Below are positions 12,203-48,708 of a DNA stretch of 64,000 nucleotides, one piece after another (position 1 is the stretch's first letter; every line of letters begins with the position of its first letter). Source of the stretch: an uncultured Arcobacter sp. Lineage in GTDB: Bacteria > Campylobacterota > Campylobacteria > Campylobacterales > Arcobacteraceae. The DNA lies in assembly GCA_965140705.1 (NCBI GenBank), contig OZ223300.1:128001-192000 (forward strand), in the 5' to 3' direction. The notes beneath the pieces were generated by a model. That model ran no database searches, was not told the origin of the DNA, and saw nothing but the letters and a program-made list of their open reading frames with translations. The position numbers were made by a program, and so were the translations under genes.

Positions 12203-12586
12203 TTAAAATTGTCCTACATTTGCATAAGATTCTCTATCTTCCATTGGAATGTCAGCAATAAACTTTTGCTCTTTTACACTTGGTAACATAAGACCTTTAG
12301 TTTTATGTTCTCTAATTTTATAAGTACCTTCGTCATTACCCATTGCATAATATTCAGAGAACTCTGCAGTATAAGGCATATCCCATACAATTGCACCTTC
12401 AGTTGGACAGGCTTCTGCACATCTTGGTTTATCTGCATGATCAACACACTCAACACATGATTCTGGTTTTACATAAAAAACATCTGTAGGATTTTTATCA
12501 TGACCATCTTCTAAAATCGCTGCAACTGGACACTCTGGAGCACATGCTTCACAACTTATACACTCTTCTGTAATTCTAACTGCCAT
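12203..12586 (-). CDS. fdxN: nif-type 2[4Fe-4S] ferredoxin with C-terminal extension
   Basis: CISCEACAPECP and CVECxxxxxxxxCAEACP; preceded by a sigma54 site. Confidence 0.8.
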   Translation of the reverse strand: MAVRITEECISCEACAPECPVAAILEDGHDKNPTDVFYVKPESCVECVDHADKPRCAEACPTEGAIVWDMPYTAEFSEYYAMGNDEGTYKIREHKTKGLMLPSVKEQKFIADIPMEDRESYANVGQF

Positions 12587-12620: not shown

Positions 12621-12636
12621 TGCAAATAGTGTTCCA
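12621..12636 (-). promoter_or_regulatory. sigma54 -24/-12 promoter (fdxN)
   Basis: TGGAACACTATTTGCA. Confidence 0.85.
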
Positions 12637-12644
12637 TTATTAAG

Positions 12645-13109
12645 CTATTTATCTAAGTGGTAATACCAAGCGTTTAAATTACTTCGTTTAAATTTTTTAT
12701 TTGTGTAAAATTCTTTGGCTGTTGTATTGTCTTCATCACAAACTAATTGTAGTCTTGTTAATGAGTGCTTTTTGGCATAATCTTTGATGTACTCAAGAAG
12801 ATAAGTTCCAACACCTAAATCTCTGTAATCATCTTTGATGATGAAGTCTTCTATTAGTCCAACTTTTGTTCCCATAACAGTTGAAATAATTTTCTGAATA
12901 GTAATCATTCCTATAACTTCATTTTCAAATTTTACAAGGATAACTTCGGAACTTCTATTATTTATTAGTAGAATTATCCCTTCTTCATGTTTTTTTTCAT
13001 TGAAAGCAAAATCTTGTTCAATAGTAAACAAAGATTGAAGAAGGTTAATTAGGTCTGGAAGGTCGTCATTTGTTGCTTTACATATTTGTAAATTATTTTT
13101 TAATATCAT
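12645..13109 (-). CDS. GNAT family acetyltransferase
   Basis: YRDLGVGTYLL acetyl-CoA motif; AKEFY. Confidence 0.85.
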   Translation of the reverse strand: MILKNNLQICKATNDDLPDLINLLQSLFTIEQDFAFNEKKHEEGIILLINNRSSEVILVKFENEVIGMITIQKIISTVMGTKVGLIEDFIIKDDYRDLGVGTYLLEYIKDYAKKHSLTRLQLVCDEDNTTAKEFYTNKKFKRSNLNAWYYHLDK

Positions 13110-14340
13110 TATAGTTTATCTCCTTAGAGACCTTCTTTTCCGTACCTTTCACATATATTAAATCTACATCTTTTTCATTACATATATACTCTTGTGTAAT
13201 TACGCACGAACCCAAGTTCTCTTCTGATGGTATTGTATATTGTAATGGTAGCATAAGTTTTTCTATTATACCCCTTAATCCTCTAGCTCCTACGTCTTTT
13301 TCATAAGCGATATTTGCAATTTCATCTAGGGCTTTATCATCAAATTTTAAATCAACCCCATCAAGCTCAAAAAGTATTTCATACTGTTTTGTAATAGCAT
13401 TTTTAGGTTCTTTTAGAACTCTTATTAAATCCTCTTTTGAGAGTTTATTAAGTTCTGCAATTACTGGAATTCTACCAATAAATTCAGGAATTAATCCAAA
13501 AGAGATAAGCTCTTTTGCTTCGATATCTTTTTTATCTTTTTGTTTATTATCTTTGTTTAAAAATCCCATTACTGTAGATTTTTCTTTGTTTTCATCTTTT
13601 CTTAATCCAACAAAAGCACCACCACAGATAAATAAAACATGGGTAGTATCAAATAAAATAGTCTCAGCAGATGAGTTTTTTCTACTTCCTTTTACAGGAA
13701 CATAAACTTCAGCACCCTCTAATATTTTTAATAAACCTTGTTGAACACCCTCCCCACTTACATCTCTTCCACTTGTGGCACTTTCACTTTTATTGGCTAT
13801 TTTGTCTATTTCATCTATATAAACAATACCTCTTTTTGCTTTTTCCAAATCAAAATCAGCAGCTGCTAAAAGTCTTGAAAGTATAGACTCAACATCTTCA
13901 CCCACATATCCAGCTTCAGTTAAAGCTGTTGCATCTGCAACTGCAAAGGGTACATCCATGATTTTAGCAAGTGATTTTGCAAGAAGAGTTTTACCACTTC
14001 CTGTTGGACCTATTAGCATGATATTTGATTTTTCAAGTTCTACATTTTTGATAATTGGTTTATCGATTCTTTTGTAGTGGTTATAAAGGGCAACTGCTAA
14101 AACCTTTTTAGCATCATCTTGACCTATTACATAATCATCAAGATGTTCTTTTATTTTAATAGGAACACTAAGACCTTTTTGGAACTCTTTTTTTGCTTCT
14201 TTTATAGTCTCTTTTTCCATAACATTTGAACACATAGAGATACATTCATCACAAATATTTGCACTTTCACTTGAAAATATTTTTTTAACTTCTTTTATCT
14301 CTTTCCCACAAAAATCACATGATTTTAATTTATTAGGCAT
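13093..14340 (-). CDS. clpX: ATP-dependent Clp protease ATPase (nif-associated copy)
   Basis: C4 zinc finger, GPTGSGKT, TEAGYVGEDVE, RDVSGEGVQQ. Confidence 0.92.
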   Translation of the reverse strand: MPNKLKSCDFCGKEIKEVKKIFSSESANICDECISMCSNVMEKETIKEAKKEFQKGLSVPIKIKEHLDDYVIGQDDAKKVLAVALYNHYKRIDKPIIKNVELEKSNIMLIGPTGSGKTLLAKSLAKIMDVPFAVADATALTEAGYVGEDVESILSRLLAAADFDLEKAKRGIVYIDEIDKIANKSESATSGRDVSGEGVQQGLLKILEGAEVYVPVKGSRKNSSAETILFDTTHVLFICGGAFVGLRKDENKEKSTVMGFLNKDNKQKDKKDIEAKELISFGLIPEFIGRIPVIAELNKLSKEDLIRVLKEPKNAITKQYEILFELDGVDLKFDDKALDEIANIAYEKDVGARGLRGIIEKLMLPLQYTIPSEENLGSCVITQEYICNEKDVDLIYVKGTEKKVSKEINYNDIKK

Positions 14341-15157
14341 AGTTATTTATAAACTCATTTAAACTCAAATTTAAATTTTCTAAATTATGAGTTTTGATAA
14401 ATTTATCCTCTTTTTTTGTTAGTTCAGGTTTATTAAATATAGCAAACCCACCTTTTAAATCCATTGTTATTTCATTTGCAACCATTCTAAAAGTATCTTT
14501 TGAAAAATCAACACCCATAAAAAGATACTCTTTGTCTTTTCTAAAATCTTTTAAAATAGGAGGCATAGCAAATCCACCCATAGCTTCTGTTAACCAATCT
14601 ACAAAATCAGCATCAGAGATGATAAAATTCATCTCAGGTTTTGTTGAGCCCATAGGTTTAAATAAAATTGGCAAATCTAAAGTTAAAGCCTCTTTTTCTA
14701 CTTTTTCATAGGCATTTCTACTAAGATCAAATCTATAAATAATAAATCTATCATAATCAGCAGTTATTCTAGAAACTCCAGTTATTAAGAAGTGATTTTC
14801 ATCACTATAAATCTTTTGTAAGCTATCATCTAGATTTGTATCAATTACATATTTAGGTTTGATTTGTTTTAGCCAAGTATAAACTTTAGGTAAATCATAC
14901 TCTTTAGAACTATAGATATGGTTTGTCATTTGAATAATAAACTCTCTACCTTTTCTTTGCTCTAAACTCATAGCGGCTCTTGAGTATTCATACATAAGTC
15001 TTGGGCTCATAGCTCTTCCATTATTTAGGGCTAAAATCATCGAATCACTATCAAATGGAAGTTTTGTTCCATCTTTTGCAATACTATCTTCGAATATACC
15101 CATTCCTAAAAATGGGACGAGAGTACCATTTTTTAATTTTTCTACTATATTTTCCAT
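14333..15157 (-). CDS. SIR2-like domain protein (nif-associated type)
   Basis: LVPFLGMG, IDTNLD, LFKPMGS, LFMG. Confidence 0.7.
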   Translation of the reverse strand: MENIVEKLKNGTLVPFLGMGIFEDSIAKDGTKLPFDSDSMILALNNGRAMSPRLMYEYSRAAMSLEQRKGREFIIQMTNHIYSSKEYDLPKVYTWLKQIKPKYVIDTNLDDSLQKIYSDENHFLITGVSRITADYDRFIIYRFDLSRNAYEKVEKEALTLDLPILFKPMGSTKPEMNFIISDADFVDWLTEAMGGFAMPPILKDFRKDKEYLFMGVDFSKDTFRMVANEITMDLKGGFAIFNKPELTKKEDKFIKTHNLENLNLSLNEFINNYA

Positions 15158-24121: not shown

Positions 24122-25771
24122 TTAATTTAATCTATTTATAAATAGATTTCTTATTTTTGTAAGTATTGAATTATCTTCAAATCTTAATCTAAAGTAACCT
24201 TTTTGAACCTCTTTTATTAAGATGTGTTTTTTTAAATTTTCATCTTCAAGTGGATAATCTTCTCTAAAATGAGCACCTCTACTCTCTTTTCTTTTTTGTG
24301 CTGAAAGTATTATAGCTTCTGATATTTCAAGGGCATTTCTTAATTCTAGTATGGAAATTAATTCAACATTATTAGTCTTTTCTTTATTTATACAATGAAG
24401 GGAATATGATTCTCTTCTTAGATATTTTACATAATCAAAGGCTTTAATCAAACTCTCTTCGGAACGTATAATTCCTACTTTTTCAAATAAAACTTTTCCT
24501 AAGGAGATTCTAATTGCATTGAAGTTTTTTGTAGTATCACCTTCAAAAATTTTATCTATATTTTGAATATCTCTTATGACTATATTATAATCAATTGGCA
24601 AATACTCTTTGTAGTGAGTATATTCATAAGCTTTTTTACCCACTAGTTCACCAAATATTGTTCCCTCTAAAAGAGAGTTTCCTCCAAGTCTATTTGCTCC
24701 ATGAACTCCATTTGAAGCCATTTCTCCACAGATAAAAAGTCCTTTTATTGAAGTTTCACCCATATTTGTATCAACTCCACCCATACTATAATGGGCTACA
24801 GGTTTTATTTTTAATAACTCTTTACTAATATCTATTCCCACTTGATTATATGCTGCATTAAATAGTGAGGGAAGTTTTTCTTGAATTTTTTCGTATCCTA
24901 AATGTCTTAAATCAATAAATACCTCTTTCCCCTTTTTTTGCTGTTCAAGTATTGCCTTTGCAATTTTATCTCTAGTTTCTAGTTCGTTAATAAATCTCTC
25001 ACCATCACTATTTATCAAGTATCCACCTTCCCCCCGTGCTGCTTCTGTTACAAGATAATTTGTTTTGGCTATTCCTGTTGGGTGAAATTGCATAAATTCC
25101 ATATCTTTTAAAACTAATCCCGCTCTTAAACAAACAGCTAATAAATCACCCGTATAATCTTGTGCATTGGTAGAGTTTCCTCTAAATATTCCAGCATATC
25201 CACCACCTGCAAGAACTACAGCTTTTGCTGGATATACTAAAACAGAAGTGTCAGATCTTCTTAGACAAACTACCCCAGAAATAGCGTTTTCATGGGTAGC
25301 TAGGTTTAATACATAAGTATTTACCAAAAAAGTTATACCTACTTCTTTTGCTTTTTTTATAAGTGCTTGAGTTATTGCAAACCCAGTTTTATCTCCCACA
25401 TAACAAGTTCTATTTGCTGAACCTCCACCAAAGGGTCTTTGTAAAATATTCCCCTTTTCATCTTTATCAAAATTTACTCCATATTTTTCAAGTTTTGAGA
25501 TTATATTAGAAGCATTTTTACACATATAACTTATGGCATTTATATCTGCTAGACCTTTTGATGATTTGAAAGTATCATCAATATGAGAATTTATTGCATA
25601 AGAATCTTTAGAATTTAAAACTGCATTTATTCCACCACTTGCCATGGCAGAATTTGATTTGAAGATATTTCCTTTTGTGATGAGAGCTACAGTATTATCA
25701 ACTTTTTTTGCTTCTATTGCTGCCATTAGTCCAGCGATACCACCGCCTACTACAACTACATCATAAATCAT
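24122..25771 (-). CDS. Stand-alone SdhA/FrdA/NadB-family flavoprotein
   Basis: GGGIAG, SNSAMASGG, QFHPT, EAARGEGG, HYSMGG, HGANRLGGNSL, ESRGAHFR. Confidence 0.8.
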   Translation of the reverse strand: MIYDVVVVGGGIAGLMAAIEAKKVDNTVALITKGNIFKSNSAMASGGINAVLNSKDSYAINSHIDDTFKSSKGLADINAISYMCKNASNIISKLEKYGVNFDKDEKGNILQRPFGGGSANRTCYVGDKTGFAITQALIKKAKEVGITFLVNTYVLNLATHENAISGVVCLRRSDTSVLVYPAKAVVLAGGGYAGIFRGNSTNAQDYTGDLLAVCLRAGLVLKDMEFMQFHPTGIAKTNYLVTEAARGEGGYLINSDGERFINELETRDKIAKAILEQQKKGKEVFIDLRHLGYEKIQEKLPSLFNAAYNQVGIDISKELLKIKPVAHYSMGGVDTNMGETSIKGLFICGEMASNGVHGANRLGGNSLLEGTIFGELVGKKAYEYTHYKEYLPIDYNIVIRDIQNIDKIFEGDTTKNFNAIRISLGKVLFEKVGIIRSEESLIKAFDYVKYLRRESYSLHCINKEKTNNVELISILELRNALEISEAIILSAQKRKESRGAHFREDYPLEDENLKKHILIKEVQKGYFRLRFEDNSILTKIRNLFINRLN

Positions 25772-25772
25772 A

Positions 25773-26882
25773 TTATACTCTATACATTAAGTCGTAGTGT
25801 GCTCTTGGAGTTGACTTTATTTGAGATATTTTTAGATTACTTTTTATATGAACAGGTACTTTTGAAGCAAAAAGTGAACTTATAATTCCAGGTGTTGAAC
25901 GTACAAATTGAAGCGCTAATTGAATATCATTTTCTAGAACCATTTTATTATCCAATAAGTAACCAGTTTCAGCTTTAAATGACTTTTTAAATAGATTCAT
26001 TTGAAGTAGTGAAGAACTACTTATAACACCAATTTTTAGTCTATGTGCTGCTTGTAAAAGTGTACATTCCTCACCTTTTACTGTTTGTGTTGGCATTGTA
26101 TATATGTTTGTTTTTGCAATATTAAAAGGAGTTTGAATATATTTAAAATGGTTATCTTCTCCTCCAACTTTAAGTGCAATTTCTACTAAATCTTCTAAGT
26201 TGATATGTTCACCTGTAGATTTATCACTAAATCCATTCCAAACAGCAACCCCATAGTATTTGATGAAGCCCATAGTTACCATTTTTTCAAATCTTCTAAA
26301 TATAGATTCAACTTTTTTTAGGAATTTTTTATATCCATTTTTTTGTATTTGGATTTCTGGATTATGTAAATAGTAAATATCAAATTTATCAATACCCATA
26401 TTTTCCAAAGATTTCTTACATGACCACTCTATAAAATCAGCACTTAAACAGTGTTGATCCAATTCTATATCTTCTTGTGTCGCTAGTTTTGTGTTGATGA
26501 TATTTTCTTCAATCCAAGTATATGGATTTTTTGGAAATGGATATTCTAATTGAATAAAACCACCCTTTGAACAAATAATTAGTTCTTCTCTTGTAACTAT
26601 TTTCTCTTCAAAAAGCTCTTTTAGTGCAATACCAATCTCTTTTTCACTTTGCCCATATCTATAATTACTTGCAGAATCTATTAGATTTATGCCATTTTTA
26701 ACAGCTTCTTTTACACCTTCAATATAATGAAAAACGTAATTCTCTTCTTTATAAGGCTCTTTATTAAAAGTACCAAGGCCAAGTTTTGAAAAAATGAGCT
26801 CATTGCTTTTTATATAAAATTCTTTGTAAGATGAAAATTTTTTTGCAAAATTGTAAGTTGCGTCAAAAGTTGCTTCTGTCAT
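25773..26882 (-). CDS. Aldo/keto reductase family protein
   Basis: LGLGT, GINLIDSASNY, SKGG, DIYYLHNP. Confidence 0.8.
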   Translation of the reverse strand: MTEATFDATYNFAKKFSSYKEFYIKSNELIFSKLGLGTFNKEPYKEENYVFHYIEGVKEAVKNGINLIDSASNYRYGQSEKEIGIALKELFEEKIVTREELIICSKGGFIQLEYPFPKNPYTWIEENIINTKLATQEDIELDQHCLSADFIEWSCKKSLENMGIDKFDIYYLHNPEIQIQKNGYKKFLKKVESIFRRFEKMVTMGFIKYYGVAVWNGFSDKSTGEHINLEDLVEIALKVGGEDNHFKYIQTPFNIAKTNIYTMPTQTVKGEECTLLQAAHRLKIGVISSSSLLQMNLFKKSFKAETGYLLDNKMVLENDIQLALQFVRSTPGIISSLFASKVPVHIKSNLKISQIKSTPRAHYDLMYRV

Positions 26883-26978
26883 ATATATTTTTCCTTTTCA
26901 ATTCCTTTTAAAAAAAAGAGTAAAACTGGGGGAGTCTTACTCTTTAAAATTTAACTACAAAAGGTTGACTAATATACA

Positions 26979-26994
26979 TGCAAGAAGTGTTCCT
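26979..26994 (-). promoter_or_regulatory. sigma54 promoter (AKR-flavoprotein-nifT operon)
   Basis: AGGAACACTTCTTGCA. Confidence 0.8.
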
Positions 26995-27073
26995 TTGATA
27001 TTGAGTAAATTATGTAATTAAATGGTTACTGAAATTTAGATATAATTAAGGTAATACATAAAAAAGAGATCAA

Positions 27074-29494
27074 ATGAAGATAGTTATAATAGGTGGAGGA
27101 ATTGCCGCAGTTTACTTAGCAAATAATATTTTAAATATAGATTCATCATGTAATATTACTATGCTTAGTGATGAAAAATATATCCCTTATGATAGGATAC
27201 ATCTTTGTAGACTAATTGGAACTAAAAATGATGTAGAAGATATAAAACTAGAACTAAATAGTGCTGTAACCTTACAACTTAATCAAAGGGTTTCAAATAT
27301 CAATAAAGAGGAAAAAATAGTCTTCTCAAATGATAAAACTTATACCTATGATAAACTTATTATTGCCACAGGTTCAACTCCCCTAACTCTTTTAGATACA
27401 AATATAGATAATGTAGCTGTTTTTCGAAATGTAAATGATTGTAAAAAGATAGAGAAATACTCTAAAACCCATGAAGTAGTACTTGTAGGAAGTGGCCCTA
27501 TTGCCTTAGAACTCCTTGATACTTTAAATAATATAAGTGATGTGAAAAGCATAACTTTACTTTTAAGAAGTAGACATTTATATGATAAATATATATCAAA
27601 TGAAGCTATGCAAATCATGGAAAAAAGCTTTTTAAAAAATGAAAAAGTAAAAATCTCCTATGAAGATGAGATAGTTGATACAGTAATCAGAAATAATAAA
27701 ATTGAACTTCTTAAAACAAAAAAGTTAGAGATAAAAAATCCTTTTATTGTTTTTGGAGTGGGTATAAAAGCAAATGCAAGTTCTTTTGAAAATATTGTAG
27801 ATGTAAATAAAGGAATTCTAGTAAATGAATTCATGCAAACTAGTGATGAAAATATCTATGCAGTTGGTGAATGTGCAGAAGTTATAAAAGATAAATTCTT
27901 AGCAGGTCATGTAAAAGAGTGTACAATCCAAGCAAATGTTGCTATCTCTCATATCTTTCAAAAAGATGTTATGAGTTTTGAGTTAGATGTGGCAGTTGAT
28001 ATGCTTAAGATTGGTGATTTTACTTTGGTTGAAATTTGCTCTTCAGATTTTAATAAAGATTTTGAAAAAGTTGCCATTGAATCAATAGATAAAAAAAGAG
28101 TTGATGAATACTTCTTAAAAGATAATAAACTTATTAGATTTATTGGAATTAATTCAAATATTGATACAGCGTATTTAGAAAAAGTGATAAAACAAAAAGA
28201 AGAGATAGATTTAAACTATTTGTATGAAAATAGAGAATTAAGCCCAAGAGGTAAGTTAGTTTGTGCTTGTAAACATATCTATTATGATGATTTAGTAGAA
28301 CTTGTAACTTCTTGTAAAATAGACTCTTTTGCTACTTTAAAGGAGTTTAGTGAGGCAGGAAGAGTTTGTGGGAGATGTAAAAAAGAGATAGATGATATTA
28401 TTTTGGATACCCAACATTTAATAGATTATGATACTCCTAAAAAAACTCCTGAAGAGATAAGATTAGAAGAAGAGTTAAAAAGAAGTAAAAAAAGAGTAGA
28501 GAAGTTTAAAAAACTACATCCAAAAAATAATATGGATGAAAATAATTTAGAATCGGCACTAAAAATGCTTGATATGGGCAAAAGTGAAATTAATAGTTGG
28601 ATCTCTATGGTAACAGCTAATATGAAATTAAACCCAGCCTTTGAAGATGTTGTAAGTGAGGGAATTAAAAACTTAAATAAGATTCCAATAATTTGGTTGG
28701 AGTTAAGTGATTGTAGCGGGAATAGTGAAGCTTTTATTAAATCTTCTAATCCTGTTTTAGAGGATTTGATTTTTGATTATATCTCTTTGGATTATCATGA
28801 GTTACTTATGAGTGCAAGTGGTGATGAGAGTGAGACTATTTTAGAAGATATTATAAAAAATGACAAAGGTAAATATGTCTTAATAGTCGAAGGCGCTGTT
28901 CCTTTAGGGCTTGATGGAAAATATTTACGAATAGGCAAAAAAGGTGAAACAGGAATTGAACTTTTAGAAAAATGTGCTAAAGATGCAGCCCTTGTATTAG
29001 CTGTTGGTTCATGTGCTTTTGATGGAGGAGTAGTATCTGCATATCCAAATCCTACAGGTGCAGTTGGAGTCGCGGAGGCTTTAAAAAGAGATGATGTGAT
29101 AAATATTACAGGATGTCCAACAAATCCTATAAATATAGTAGGAACATTGCTCTCATATATGATGTTTGAAGAGTTGCCAGCTTTAGATAAATTTAACCGC
29201 CCTTTATGGGCTTATGAACAAAGGGTTCATGATAATTGTGAAAGAAGAGGTCACTATGAACTTGGCGAATTTGTAAAAGAGTGGGGAGATGATGGTGCAA
29301 AAAATGGTTGGTGTCTTTTTGAGATGGGCTGTAAAGGTCCATATGCCAATGTAAATTGCCCCTCTATGAAATTTAACCAAGGAACAAGTTGGCCTGTACA
29401 AGTTGGGCATGGTTGTATGGGTTGTACTGAACTTGGATTTTTTGATAAGTTTGCAAATGAGAGAGTCTATAAAGAAAAAGAGACAGAAAAATGA
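27074..29494 (+). CDS. Fusion: FAD-dependent pyridine-nucleotide oxidoreductase, BFD-like [2Fe-2S] and [NiFe]-hydrogenase small subunit
   Basis: IIGGGIA, PYDRIHL, IIATGS, IYAVGEC; CAC...CGRC; IIWLELSDCSGNSE, GSCA, GCP, HDNCER, CLFEMGCKGP, GHGCMGC; no Tat signal. Confidence 0.88.
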   Translation: MKIVIIGGGIAAVYLANNILNIDSSCNITMLSDEKYIPYDRIHLCRLIGTKNDVEDIKLELNSAVTLQLNQRVSNINKEEKIVFSNDKTYTYDKLIIATGSTPLTLLDTNIDNVAVFRNVNDCKKIEKYSKTHEVVLVGSGPIALELLDTLNNISDVKSITLLLRSRHLYDKYISNEAMQIMEKSFLKNEKVKISYEDEIVDTVIRNNKIELLKTKKLEIKNPFIVFGVGIKANASSFENIVDVNKGILVNEFMQTSDENIYAVGECAEVIKDKFLAGHVKECTIQANVAISHIFQKDVMSFELDVAVDMLKIGDFTLVEICSSDFNKDFEKVAIESIDKKRVDEYFLKDNKLIRFIGINSNIDTAYLEKVIKQKEEIDLNYLYENRELSPRGKLVCACKHIYYDDLVELVTSCKIDSFATLKEFSEAGRVCGRCKKEIDDIILDTQHLIDYDTPKKTPEEIRLEEELKRSKKRVEKFKKLHPKNNMDENNLESALKMLDMGKSEINSWISMVTANMKLNPAFEDVVSEGIKNLNKIPIIWLELSDCSGNSEAFIKSSNPVLEDLIFDYISLDYHELLMSASGDESETILEDIIKNDKGKYVLIVEGAVPLGLDGKYLRIGKKGETGIELLEKCAKDAALVLAVGSCAFDGGVVSAYPNPTGAVGVAEALKRDDVINITGCPTNPINIVGTLLSYMMFEELPALDKFNRPLWAYEQRVHDNCERRGHYELGEFVKEWGDDGAKNGWCLFEMGCKGPYANVNCPSMKFNQGTSWPVQVGHGCMGCTELGFFDKFANERVYKEKETEK

Positions 29495-31158
29495 TGAAAA
29501 AAATTGTTATTGATCCCATTACTAGAATTGAAGGACACTTAAGAGCTGAAGTAGAAGTTGATGAAAATGGAGTCGTAAAAGAGGCTTATGTTAGTGGGCA
29601 ACTTTTTCGAGGCATAGAGATAATTTTACAAGATAGAGACCCCAGAGATGCAGGATTATTAGCTGGAAGAGTTTGTGGAGTTTGTACAAATTCACACTTT
29701 AGAGGTGCTATTGGGGCTGTTGAAAATGCATATTCTTTAAGTGTTCCTCAAAATGCTAGAATAATAAGAGACTTGATGTCTATGGCTTTGTTTATTCAAG
29801 ACCATGTGGTACATTTTTATCAGTTACATCTGCTTGATTTTGTGGATGTATTAAGTGCCTTAAAGGCAAATCCTAAAGAGAGTACAAAAGAGGCTCATAA
29901 GTATTGTAAAAAACCATTTAGAAACTCTAATACACATTATGAGACAGTTTTAGAAAAGCTTCAAAATTTTATAGATGCAGGAAGATTAGGACCTTTTAAT
30001 AGTGGATATTGGGGACATAGTGATTATAAGTTAAGTAGTGAACAAAATTTAATTTTATTATCCCACTATTTTGAAGCCTTACAATTTCAAACAAAAATCT
30101 CAAAAGCCATAGCTATCTTTGGAGGGAAAACACCCCATCCTCAATCTTTGGTTGTAGGTGGTATTACAAGTGTTGCAGATATGCTAAACCCCCAAAGATT
30201 AAATGACTTTATTTTTGTAATAAAAGAGGCAAGTGATTTTATAAATAGGGCTTATTTACCTGATATGAAATTATTAGCGATTGCATATAAAGAAGAGATA
30301 AAATCAAAAAGTGGAAAAACAGCTGCTAATTATTTAAGTGTAGGTGTATATCCTATAAACAAAGAGAAAAAACTTTTTTCTAGTGGAGTTATATTTGATG
30401 GAGATTTTTCAAATATACAAGAGTTCGATGCCAATAAAATAAAAGAAGAAGTTCAAAGGGCTTGGTATAGTGATGATGAAAAACAAGAACCTTTTTATAC
30501 TGATTTAAATGAAGATGGAACTTTAAAAACTAAAAATAGTGATGATAAATACTCTTGGATAAAAGCTCCACGATATGATGGTAAGACTATGGAAACTGGT
30601 CCCATTGCAAGATTGTTTATTAGTTATTTAAATAATAACACTGCCATAAACTCTTTTGTTGATGAATTTTTAAAAGATACCTCTTTAAACTTTGAAGATT
30701 TAAACTCAAGCATTGGAAGAAATTGTGCAAGGGCAATTGAGAGTCAATATATTTGTGAATATATTTTTAAACTTGTTTCAAATTTGATTCAAAATATTAA
30801 ATACTATGATACAAATACTTGGGATAAATACAATTTTGAAGAACTAGAAAAAGATGCAAGTGGCTACGTTTTCTTAGAAGTGCCAAGGGGAGTTTTACTT
30901 CATAGTATAAACATAGAAAACTCCAAAATAAAAAATTATCAAATCATTGCCCCAACAACTTGGAATGCAACTCCCAAAAATAGTGATGGAATTAGAGGTG
31001 CATATGAAGAGGCTTTAGTTGGGGTAAAAATAGCTGATCTATCTAAACCCCTCGAAGTTCTAAAGGTATTACACTCTTTTGACCCATGTTTAGCCTGTGC
31101 AGTTCATATTATAGATACAAAAGGGAAAGTTTTGGGAGAGTATAAAATTAGAACTTAA
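29491..31158 (+). CDS. [NiFe]-hydrogenase large subunit (group 1-like)
   Basis: DPITRIEGH, L1 RVCGVC, L2 FDPCLACAVH plus a cleavable tail. Confidence 0.95.
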   Translation: MMKKIVIDPITRIEGHLRAEVEVDENGVVKEAYVSGQLFRGIEIILQDRDPRDAGLLAGRVCGVCTNSHFRGAIGAVENAYSLSVPQNARIIRDLMSMALFIQDHVVHFYQLHLLDFVDVLSALKANPKESTKEAHKYCKKPFRNSNTHYETVLEKLQNFIDAGRLGPFNSGYWGHSDYKLSSEQNLILLSHYFEALQFQTKISKAIAIFGGKTPHPQSLVVGGITSVADMLNPQRLNDFIFVIKEASDFINRAYLPDMKLLAIAYKEEIKSKSGKTAANYLSVGVYPINKEKKLFSSGVIFDGDFSNIQEFDANKIKEEVQRAWYSDDEKQEPFYTDLNEDGTLKTKNSDDKYSWIKAPRYDGKTMETGPIARLFISYLNNNTAINSFVDEFLKDTSLNFEDLNSSIGRNCARAIESQYICEYIFKLVSNLIQNIKYYDTNTWDKYNFEELEKDASGYVFLEVPRGVLLHSINIENSKIKNYQIIAPTTWNATPKNSDGIRGAYEEALVGVKIADLSKPLEVLKVLHSFDPCLACAVHIIDTKGKVLGEYKIRT

Positions 31159-40215: not shown

Positions 40216-40575
40216 TTACGCTACCTTAACTCTATATAGATTCATGTCATCTAATTTTTTACATATTGTTTTAGTTGCATCACCATCAACAGATTTTGAG
40301 ATTTCAGAAATTTGATATTTATTTGTGTAATAAATCATTTTGTAACCGTCTTTTTCTGCACACTCAGTATTTGTATAATAATCAACTAGAGCTGTATGTA
40401 AAAAAGAACCTTCTGGGATAGAAATCTCTTCTAACTTAACACCTTCTCTTGTTTCACTTGATACAACTACAGATTTACCTGTAGCATCAATTCCATCTTG
40501 CACTTTTTCTATTACTTTATCAAAACTTACATCATTACCCATATCAGCTGGGAAGTGGTATCCACATACAAACAT
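40216..40575 (-). CDS. Hypothetical protein between nifH and nifD
   Basis: Clean ORF with AGGAGA RBS, in the nifHDK operon. Confidence 0.75.
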
Positions 40576-47460: not shown

Positions 47461-48708
47461 TTATAAATTCTCTACTTTATAAAGTTTCTTTCTCTCTTTT
47501 GATGAGGGCATATCTAGCATTTTTCTGTATTTTGTAATAGTACGTCTTACCATTTCTAGATTAAACTTTTCTTGAATAGCGTCTAATATATCTTGGTCTG
47601 TTAGTGGTGCCTCTTTATCTTCATATTCAACAAGGCTTTTTATGTAGTTTTTTATCTCTGAAGAGGATAAATCTTTATTATTAACTGCATTTGAAAAAAA
47701 GTGTTTTAAAGGAAAAATTCCTAAAGAACACTCAATATATTTGTTTGCTACAGCTCTTGAAATTGTTGATTCTGCAAAACCAATCTCATTTGCTAATTCT
47801 TGCATAGAGTAGGGTCTTAGTTCACCACCCACAAAAAATGAAATTTGTTTTTCAACAATTAAAAGAACTATTTTATATAGAGTTGATTTTCGTAAACCTA
47901 ATAAGTTTACTAAATCCCTTGCTTCTTTTAGTTTCTCTTTTATACCCTCATTTTTAGAATTAAAAGCATCTTTTACTTCTAAATCTGGATAATAAGCATG
48001 ATTTATTTTGATATTGATATCTTCACCAATATCTACAAAAAAATCAGGAATAATTTGTACATTGTTATTCATATAGTTTACAGCAGGGGGATTATTAAAG
48101 TATTTTATTATCTCTTTTGCATCTTCAAATCTATGGTGTGCTGCATACTTATCCAAGTGAGAGATATCTTTAATAATCTTTTTTATGAAGTTATATAATT
48201 CATCATCAATTTTTTTATCACAGGCATCTAATTGAAAAAGAAATGACTCTGATAAATCTCTTGATCCAATTCCACTTGGTTCTAAAAGTGAAAATCTTTG
48301 TCTTATAGATTCAACATACTCTTTATATACATTACATGTTTTAGCTATTTTTTCTATATCTCCTTCAAAATATCCCTCTTCATTTATATCACAAATAATC
48401 TCCATAGCTACTTTTTGAGAGTTTGGAGTTGAAAAATTTGGAGCACATATTTGTTCACTTATTACATCATTTAAAGACTCGTTATAAATTGCCAAAGATT
48501 CAATAAACTCTCCACTAGTTCCTTGTGGCATAAAGTTTGCATAAAACTCTTTTGGTTTTTTAATTTCCAAAAATGGATTTTCATAAGAGACATTTTTTAG
48601 ATGTTTCTCTAGGTCTTGAAGTGAAGATTGTAGCATTGGTAGCCACAGTTTCAAAGATAAGTTAAGATTTTGCTTTTGTGAAGCTGAAGTTGATAATGTT
48701 TGTGCCAT
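47461..48708 (-). CDS. rpoN: RNA polymerase sigma54 factor
   Basis: ENPFLE, EPSGIG, ESTISRAV, RpoN box VRRTITKYR. Confidence 0.92.
   Translation of the reverse strand: MAQTLSTSASQKQNLNLSLKLWLPMLQSSLQDLEKHLKNVSYENPFLEIKKPKEFYANFMPQGTSGEFIESLAIYNESLNDVISEQICAPNFSTPNSQKVAMEIICDINEEGYFEGDIEKIAKTCNVYKEYVESIRQRFSLLEPSGIGSRDLSESFLFQLDACDKKIDDELYNFIKKIIKDISHLDKYAAHHRFEDAKEIIKYFNNPPAVNYMNNNVQIIPDFFVDIGEDINIKINHAYYPDLEVKDAFNSKNEGIKEKLKEARDLVNLLGLRKSTLYKIVLLIVEKQISFFVGGELRPYSMQELANEIGFAESTISRAVANKYIECSLGIFPLKHFFSNAVNNKDLSSSEIKNYIKSLVEYEDKEAPLTDQDILDAIQEKFNLEMVRRTITKYRKMLDMPSSKERKKLYKVENL

Follow-up and report, generated by a model that had tools for sequence, protein, structure and literature searches.

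The window analysed here, a 64,000-nucleotide stretch of DNA from an uncultured Arcobacter sp. (contig OZ223300.1, positions 128,001 to 192,000 of the forward strand, about 28-30% G+C), contains two overlapping genes for a [NiFe]-hydrogenase within an island of nitrogen-fixation (nif) and molybdate-transport (mod) genes. The first open reading frame (ORF) encodes a small subunit fused behind a flavoprotein module, and its stop is overlapped by 4 bases by the ORF for the large subunit (Table 1). A preliminary description of this DNA had proposed that the fused protein joins a flavin adenine dinucleotide (FAD) domain, a BFD-like domain and a complete small subunit, and Pfam and NCBIfam searches agree with that architecture. 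Pyr_redox_2 covers residues 1-271 (E = 2.9e-42), Fer2_BFD (PF04324) residues 395-443 (E = 8.2e-7, 29.7 bits against a cut-off of 26), Oxidored_q6 residues 547-694 and NiFe_hyd_SSU_C residues 714-794. The hydA model TIGR00391 matches residues 488-794 with 360 bits, well over its cut-off of 179.5. The NirB model TIGR02374 aligns with residues 3-444 (E = 5.8e-43), and because its score of 147 bits is far under the equivalog cut-off of 578, we refer to the N-terminal module as NirB-like rather than NirB. Domain order and motifs in this region follow the N-terminal part of NirB, which carries FAD, NADH and BFD [2Fe-2S] sites. Where NirB continues with a sirohaem/[4Fe-4S] domain, this protein has a hydrogenase small subunit, so that it does not qualify as a NirB nitrite reductase.

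The flavin module has the motifs GGGIAA at residues 7-12 and GSGPIALE at 139-146. Residues G7, G8, G9, A11 and A12 of the first motif and G139, G141, P142, I143 and E146 of the second are invariant in all 16 aligned family members; the second motif, which had been called atypical, is in fact an ordinary GxGxxA Rossmann motif. R165 is likewise invariant (16/16) and stands in for the acidic residue usually found at the end of strand beta-2, a further departure from NirB. Sequence matches of the module in the PDB include CoA-disulfide reductase, NirB-family proteins, NADH oxidases and rubredoxin/ferredoxin reductases. The four BFD cysteines are invariant in the same alignment, as are the predicted cluster ligands of the small-subunit domain: C547, C647 and C681 for the proximal cluster, H719, C722, C747 and C753 for the distal cluster, and C762, C781 and C784 for the medial cluster. 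All canonical small-subunit ligands are kept save the second proximal Cys, which is replaced by an equally invariant Asn550.

Table 1. Coordinates of the hydrogenase genes, their domains and associated features (window positions unless a genome contig is named).
Feature	Position	Strand	Basis or remark
Fused small-subunit ORF	27074-29494	+	806 aa
NirB-like FAD and NAD(P)(H)-binding module, residues 1-380	27074..28213	+	Pfam, NCBIfam, PDB alignments, invariant columns
BFD-like [2Fe-2S] domain, residues 395-443 (Cys397, Cys399, Cys432, Cys435)	28256..28402	+	PF04324, invariant Cys
Inter-domain linker, residues 451-535	28424..28678	+	Alignment to n-region and Tat signal of unfused precursors
[NiFe] small-subunit domain, residues 536-806	28679..29494	+	Pfam, PDB, paralogue alignment
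Group-1-type [NiFe] large subunit, 555 aa	29491-31158	+	PF00374 (NiFeSe_Hases), E = 9e-193
Candidate sigma-70-type -10 box TATAAT	27041..27046	+	Consensus match; 28 nt before fused-gene start codon
Sigma-54-type element AGGAACACTTCTTGCA	26979..26994	-	Faces divergent aldo/keto-reductase-flavoprotein operon
Canonical hydrogenase supercluster	G000:C1:1316402-1341732 (L006, L007)		

The large subunit has the Ni-ligand motifs RVCGVC (C62, C65) and DPCLAC (C533, C536), and His539 is followed by a 16-residue C-terminal extension of the type cleaved by a maturation protease. Its best 40 PDB matches are all standard (non-selenium) group 1 [NiFe] enzymes (8e-138 to 1e-115), with the periplasmic enzyme 1h2a_L at the top, and periplasmic [NiFeSe] enzymes come next. 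Huc (7utd_A, 3e-46 over residues 296-539) and 5aa5 (5e-31) match more weakly, and group 3 structures do not rise above the 1e-21 level; among these, NAD-reducing 5xf9_D aligns over residues 3-126 only (E = 2.6e-21). The RxCGxC and DPCxxC motifs and the closest structures thus bear out the earlier assignment to group 1. Two features of that group are missing: the small subunit has no twin-arginine translocation (Tat) signal, and there is no cytochrome b or other membrane partner in the operon. The twin arginine is lacking throughout residues 1-545, in line with the preliminary description, which had seen no Tat signal, and the fused subunit has no C-terminal hydrophobic membrane anchor, although both paralogues in the genome have one. 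That description was also right that no cytochrome b or maturation gene follows the large subunit: the next gene, modD, is convergent. Neither side of the pair has an adjoining cytochrome b, protease or hyp gene, and the window contains no cytochrome b gene.

The genome (3.10 Mb in 3 contigs) holds its canonical hydrogenase supercluster about 1.16 Mb from the fused pair. The supercluster comprises a cytoplasmic-type pair (311 and 455 aa), two group 1 sets, each with a cytochrome b and a protease, and hypF, hypB, hypC, hypD, hypE and hypA. A counterpart of the 311/455-aa pair has been called group 2d in Aliarcobacter butzleri (PMC12286921). Because hyp and protease genes lie in this distant cluster and none is adjacent to the fused pair, the fused enzyme is presumably matured in trans. 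The two group 1 sets belong with the Tat-exported, cytochrome-b-linked uptake hydrogenases of group 1b in Campylobacterota (HynAB/HydABC), and the fused enzyme is 43-44% identical to them over the small-subunit domain and 46-48% over the large subunit. It also shares their cluster ligands, the CxGN motif of the 415-aa paralogue and a homologous signal-peptide region. In contrast to these sets, the fused enzyme lacks the twin arginine, the C-terminal anchor and the adjacent cytochrome b and protease genes, and it has 450 extra N-terminal residues with FAD, NAD(P) and [2Fe-2S] sites.

The linker between the BFD-like and small-subunit domains suggests how this arrangement came about. Residues ~470-540 align with the long n-region and Tat signal of the genome's own unfused small subunits, and RRDFMKW of the 415-aa paralogue corresponds to SEINSWI in the linker, where the twin arginine has been lost. 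Unfused small subunits from other genomes align from residue ~465-470 of the fused protein onward, and the alignments to TIGR00391 and to the PDB precursor 1h2a_S begin at residues 488 and 499. By these alignments, the linker is a decayed Tat signal peptide. In a quick maximum-likelihood tree of 73 small-subunit domains, the 12 fused rows that were correctly cut form one clade (Shimodaira-Hasegawa-like approximate likelihood ratio test [SH-aLRT] 100; the mis-cut row P0076 was left out of the count). This clade adjoins Tat-bearing CxGN/CxGE small subunits, including the 415-aa paralogue, and together they form the sister group (SH-aLRT 99) of the CTGC clade that holds the 387-aa paralogue. The fusion therefore seems, on this tree, to have arisen once, next to Tat-exported CxGN small subunits.

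The second proximal position was located in 70 representatives, where it is Cys in 47, Asn in 12, Asp in 5, Glu in 1 and another residue in 5, and many of the Asn and Asp forms bear Tat signals. Cys-to-Asn at this position is a natural variant in Nostoc HupS, and equivalent mutants are active (Yonemoto 2014, PMC4070099, Table 1 for the variant). Since Asn is common to Tat-bearing relatives and equivalent mutants retain activity, the "non-conserved Fe-S sites" of the family are inherited and tolerated rather than a sign of decay. Within the supercluster, the cytoplasmic-type small subunit (CNGN) and the 415-aa subunit that goes with Tat and cytochrome b (DCAGN) both have Asn, and the 387-aa subunit has CTGC. 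A CTGC/CSGC clade comprises small subunits of 545-808 aa with no Tat motif by regular expression (P0128, P0136, P0139, P0140, P0144, P0145, P0147, P0153 and P0158); these match the fused protein through the small-subunit domain only, close to their own N-termini, which means that their long extensions are C-terminal and of a different type.

The fusion recurs in other Campylobacterota. A word-indexed protein search returned, among the matches listed, at least 120 clusters whose proteins are 788-819 aa long, have an identical Pfam string and show 64-88% identity; those with names belong to Sulfurimonas species and Campylobacterota metagenome-assembled genomes. A second scan, of one genome per species, recovered full-length relatives in 140 species genomes, from which 80 loci were kept at 59-89% identity in Arcobacter, Arcobacteraceae, Sulfurimonas, Sulfurovum and other Campylobacterota. 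Of the 62 loci that extend at least 2 kb beyond the fused gene on its downstream side, 60 have the large-subunit gene there, and in the other two the contigs are too short. In three Sulfurimonas loci the two genes are not overlapping but apart, by ~1.7 kb (L031, L035) or ~3 kb (L038). A third sample comprised 301 genomes from the phylum with completeness of 90% or more; 16 of them have a full-length copy, and in one other the copy is truncated where the contig ends. In a library clustered at 50% identity, the full-length proteins reduce to a single representative and some fragments, so the family is compact; other long small subunits (545-808 aa) in that library have different extensions. Ratios of nonsynonymous to synonymous substitution (dN/dS) against the two closest relatives are 0.14-0.16 for the flavin module, 0.13-0.15 for the BFD domain, 0.14-0.17 for the linker and 0.037 for the small-subunit domain. 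Every domain of the fused gene is under purifying selection. An assembly artefact or split gene, which had been raised as a possibility, was rejected in view of the full-length genes in the listed clusters and kept loci. Taken as a whole, the sequences indicate that the gene pair is real and conserved, and that it is almost certainly functional.

The preliminary description implied that such an enzyme would be new, but the fusion, the missing Tat signal and the idea of an H2/NAD(H) enzyme were already reported at the genomic level by Scott et al. 2006 (PMC1635747). For Thiomicrospira crunogena XCL-2, those authors reported a small subunit made of two domains, with sites for FAD and NADH; the twin-arginine leader is missing and diaphorase subunits are lacking, and they deduced a cytoplasmic H2/NAD(H) enzyme. 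This proposal was repeated in 2016 (PMC4744846) and 2019 (PMC6501319). Hansen & Perner 2016 (PMC4744846) assigned the large subunit to group 1b, together with Epsilonproteobacteria, reported a small subunit of 813 aa and listed carriers in Arcobacter nitrofigilis, Sulfurimonas autotrophica, Sulfurovum sp. AR, Sulfuricurvum kujiense and Thioalkalimicrobium. The XCL-2 genes, Tcr2037/2038, are "cluster II" in that paper and "gene cluster I" in Gonnella 2019 (PMC6501319). A review of Sulfurimonas (PMC4584964) lists three group I hydrogenases in S. gotlandica and, in its accessible portions, does not mention the fusion; one S. gotlandica protein among the matches listed is annotated "quinone-reactive ... 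precursor".

The window pair corresponds to the XCL-2 type in its small subunit of about 800 aa (~800-813 aa in published descriptions), its N-terminal pyridine nucleotide-disulfide oxidoreductase domain (Pyr_redox_2), the lack of Tat signal and cytochrome b, and the 1b-type large subunit that follows. We base this link on those descriptions and on the genera shared among relatives (Arcobacter, Sulfurimonas, Sulfurovum, Sulfuricurvum), and the 1b label of the window enzyme is taken from the papers on its XCL-2 homologue. The two loci differ in setting: the XCL-2 genes are reported to share one operon with hyp genes, whereas the window pair stands alone in the nif-mod island, far from its hyp genes. 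The window pair belongs to a family that has been described from genomes since 2006. In the accessible portions of the published descriptions, we found no mention of the linker as a vestigial Tat signal, of a single origin by the CxGN subunits, of an explanation for the proximal-site deviation, or of a lineage-specific insertion into a nif island without a nif-type promoter. What the family lacks is biochemistry rather than discovery, and the Arcobacter nif-island copy would be a convenient physiological test case.

NirB passes electrons from NADH to FAD, on to its [2Fe-2S] cluster and then to the catalytic domain. With the same layout ahead of a hydrogenase small subunit, the simplest reading is that the wire is reversed and leads from H2 to NAD(P)+. 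H2 would be split at the Ni-Fe site of the large subunit, and electrons would pass from the proximal cluster (three Cys and Asn) through the medial [3Fe-4S] and distal [4Fe-4S] clusters to the BFD [2Fe-2S] cluster and FAD, which would reduce NAD(P)+; the chain may also run in reverse. We infer each of these transfer steps, the acceptor and the direction from the layout. The alignments and the tree indicate descent from a Tat-exported, cytochrome-b-linked group 1b enzyme, in which a NirB-type FAD/NAD(P)H and [2Fe-2S] module was placed ahead of the whole small-subunit precursor. The signal peptide afterwards lost its twin arginine and turned into the linker, and the C-terminal anchor disappeared. 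Hyp proteins and the C-terminal protease would be supplied in trans from the supercluster. As to the cofactor, the residue aligned with the acidic residue of NADH-dependent 3cgb, 6pfz and 2cdu is Leu, followed by the invariant R165. Because the acidic residue is replaced and an invariant Arg stands next to it, the sequence weakly favours NADP(H).

A hydrogenase of this kind would resemble group 3d Hox enzymes (PDB 5xf9) in its cytoplasmic location and in the proposed reaction of H2 with NAD(P)+. Unlike Hox, which has separate NuoF/NuoE-like flavin mononucleotide diaphorase subunits and a group 3 large subunit, it has a fused NirB-type FAD module. The short match to 5xf9_D and the absence of a NuoF/NuoE-like gene among the 32 window ORFs scanned (9.4 to 48.7 kb) argue that it does not belong to group 3d; if the activity is real, the likeness to Hox is convergence and not membership. 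Cyanobacterial HupSL, a group 2a enzyme, belongs to a different group and has no flavoprotein fusion, and the only group-2-type structure matched was Huc 7utd_A. HupSL is nevertheless similar in that it is nitrogenase-linked, lacks a Tat signal, has the same Cys-to-Asn change at the second proximal position (PMC4070099) and offers a parallel for a possible role in recycling nitrogenase H2.

On balance, we lean towards the view that the pair is a cytoplasmic two-subunit [NiFe]-hydrogenase with its own diaphorase, derived from a Tat-exported group 1b enzyme. The soluble two-subunit layout and the flavin/NAD(P) module put forward in the preliminary description hold up on sequence grounds, so that its interpretation is supported in part. 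Several points weigh against the reading. In the only published tests found, Hydrogenovibrio crunogenus XCL-2, a strain whose sole hydrogenase is of this type, used no H2 in a range of conditions and showed no uptake activity in soluble or membrane fractions ("data not shown" in PMC4744846). The membrane-bound activity of strain SP-41 was ascribed to a second hydrogenase with Tat signal and cytochrome b (Gonnella 2019, PMC6501319). No biochemical characterisation of the fused enzyme was found in the literature searched, which did not cover subscription journals. In the L3 motif of the large subunit, the first His is Gln in 7/7 aligned fused-type proteins and the fourth His is Gln in 3/7 (window, L009 and L010). 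An AlphaFold2 model of the whole fused subunit from a 16-row alignment has a mean predicted local distance difference test score of 57 and a predicted template-modelling score of 0.46, with the flavin module alone confident (~80-90), so that the geometry from the BFD to the distal cluster is poorly defined. Finally, 9li3, named "ferredoxin-NAD(+) reductase" in the PDB, also has Arg-Ser at the aligned position, which makes the cofactor preference suggested above ambiguous. If the diaphorase reading is correct, two genes would be enough to encode an entire H2:NAD(P)+ oxidoreductase around a group 1 core of the uptake type, of interest for H2-driven cofactor regeneration and for reductant supply in sulfur-oxidising Campylobacterota. 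Surveys that classify by large subunit count this enzyme as a membrane-bound respiratory group 1b hydrogenase, and the small subunit says that it is cytoplasmic.

The pair might instead be a dedicated recycler of nitrogenase-derived H2, co-regulated with nif in this Arcobacter lineage. It lies inside the nif-mod-nifA island in the window and in two Arcobacter genomes at 88-89% identity (L008, L009), and nitrogenase-linked cyanobacterial HupS has the same proximal Asn. In the 301-genome sample, nifH was found above the cut-off in 11 of 17 carriers of the fusion and in 20 of 284 non-carriers. Within one family of 24 genomes (f7), 8 carriers had nifH and 4 did not, against 2 and 10 of the non-carriers. 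This genome-level co-occurrence, which the preliminary description had named as a check, is only suggestive because related genomes are not independent, and it is not matched by proximity. Of 80 related loci, just 2 have nif genes within 10 kb. Where both flanks are present (33 loci), neighbours include nif in 2, hyp in 7, protease in 12, cytochrome b in 3 and none of these in 19; the three cytochrome b genes, all within 10 kb, belong to neighbouring canonical clusters. In two carrier genomes that have both genes on one contig, the fused gene and nif are ~164 and ~293 kb apart, and 6/17 carriers have no nifH.

Comparison of islands also bears on this idea. In a diazotroph of the same genus (G274), nifHDK, mod genes, aldo/keto reductase, flavoprotein and nifA keep this order but the hydrogenase and modD are missing, and in another genus (G272) the reductase directly follows nifK. 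Therefore, the pair together with modD has the look of a 5-kb segment inserted into an island that was already there, or else was lost from G274. Promoter-like elements around the pair are likewise of little help to a nif-specific role. The sole sigma-54-type element in the 191-nt intergenic region before the hydrogenase is on the minus strand and faces the divergent operon, and the hydrogenase side has the TATAAT box; no GG-N10-GC sigma-54 element was found on the plus strand of this region. NifA upstream activating sequences (TGT-N10-ACA) were found neither upstream of the hydrogenase nor upstream of nifH, so that their absence carries no weight either way. The position in the nif island is thus local and not a general trait of the family, and the link of the hydrogenase to nif is weak. 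Of the earlier suggestion that electrons come from nitrogenase-derived H2, what survives is the synteny in three closely related Arcobacter genomes; the scarcity of nif at other loci, the G274 island and the lack of a sigma-54/NifA-type promoter facing the hydrogenase tell against it. A dedicated, co-regulated recycler accordingly strikes us as unlikely. Under the diaphorase reading, the pair and modD would have been inserted into the nif-mod island of the Arcobacter lineage, and nitrogenase H2 may be recovered there as NAD(P)H, as a local role. A fuller version, in which a single conversion, by capture of a NirB module and reuse of the Tat signal as linker, turned a periplasmic respiratory 1b enzyme into a cytoplasmic NADP+-reducing one (a third and independent way of coupling H2 oxidation to NAD(P), beside groups 3b and 3d) and the cassette in the nif island returns nitrogenase H2 as NADPH, is possible, and we offer it only tentatively.

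Electrons could also flow in the opposite direction, with the enzyme serving as a redox valve through which surplus NAD(P)H is oxidised and H2 released at times when electron acceptors are scarce. Scott et al. 2006 (PMC1635747) proposed such a sink for excess NADH, through the cytoplasmic hydrogenase of XCL-2, and the failure of that strain to take up H2 (PMC4744846) fits. NirB modules, to which the fused module is homologous through TIGR02374, normally take electrons from NAD(P)H. Nevertheless, making H2 from NAD(P)H is energetically unfavourable unless H2 is very low, and H2 oxidation is the usual bias of group 1 enzymes whose medial cluster is [3Fe-4S] and whose distal cluster has a His ligand. 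The presence of nifH in most carriers would also suit uptake better, and we judge a valve to be quite unlikely.

There is a small chance that the flavin serves another acceptor, such as O2, a disulfide, persulfide/polysulfide or a small redox protein. The host organisms are microaerophiles that oxidise sulfur, and among the nearest relatives of the module with known structures are CoA-disulfide reductases, NADH oxidases and rubredoxin/ferredoxin reductases. Cys45 is invariant (16/16) and lies three residues past the position aligned with a Cys of 3cgb, which is presumably the redox-active Cys of that CoA-disulfide reductase; E. coli NirB has Ser where the family has Cys45. This offset places Cys45 away from the catalytic-Cys position, the second Rossmann motif, being complete and invariant, points to a bound pyridine nucleotide, and the partner in the NirB layout over residues 3-444 is NAD(P)H. 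An inactive relic of a periplasmic hydrogenase that lost Tat and cytochrome b and has "improper" Fe-S sites, as considered by Hansen & Perner for inactive XCL-2 (PMC4744846), is very improbable despite the Fe-S and L3 deviations, given dN/dS of 0.04-0.17 in every domain, intact full-length genes with invariant ligands in 140 species genomes at 59-89% identity, and a Cys-to-Asn change that Tat-bearing, cytochrome-b-linked paralogues share and that is tolerated experimentally (PMC4070099).

The genes around the pair complete the island. Divergent genes upstream encode an aldo/keto-reductase-like protein, a flavoprotein of the succinate-dehydrogenase/aspartate-oxidase type and, 3.3 kb from the hydrogenase, a NifA-like activator (TIGR01817, 517 bits against a cut-off of 529). 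Downstream, the convergent modD is followed by molybdate-transport and TOBE genes and then by nifK, which starts 6 kb from the pair, nifD, a 119-aa ORF and nifH. In one RNA run, which had 5% of words in common, contigs fell outside both hydrogenase genes; one lay on the aldo/keto-reductase gene with 26 differences in 347 bases, which indicates a relative, and two short pieces lay on modD.

The element AGGAACACTTCTTGCA upstream of the divergent genes resembles TGGAACGCTATATGCA upstream of nifH (41691, minus strand) and TGGAACACTATTTGCA at 12636 and 51949. Such sigma-54-type elements (TGGAAC-N5-T/A-TGCA) precede nifH and two other minus-strand genes. The aldo/keto-reductase-like gene (369 aa) and the flavoprotein gene (549 aa) at 24122-26994 (minus strand) form an operon behind the nifH-like element. 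The same pair lies directly after nifK in another genus (G272, L089), with nifA next, and it looks like an undescribed nif-associated redox pair. The 119-aa ORF between nifH and nifD (40216-40575, minus strand) has no Pfam or NCBIfam match and is kept in place in four other Arcobacteraceae loci at 70-96% identity (L088, L089, L090 and L009).

The two copies of TGGAACACTATTTGCA are identical and lie on the minus strand. One (12621-12636) is upstream of a gene for a YfhL-type di-[4Fe-4S] ferredoxin (12203-12586) and the other (51934-51949) is upstream of a 131-aa ORF (51505-51900); these genes are probably further members of the NifA/RpoN regulon, and rpoN itself is at 47461-48708. Elsewhere in the window, three adjacent genes in the minus-strand region 12645-15157 code for a 274-aa protein with a SIR2_2 domain, a ClpX-like AAA+ protein of 415 aa that has a C4 zinc finger, and a GNAT acetyltransferase, and this pairing of SIR2 with an ATPase is reminiscent of anti-phage defence systems.

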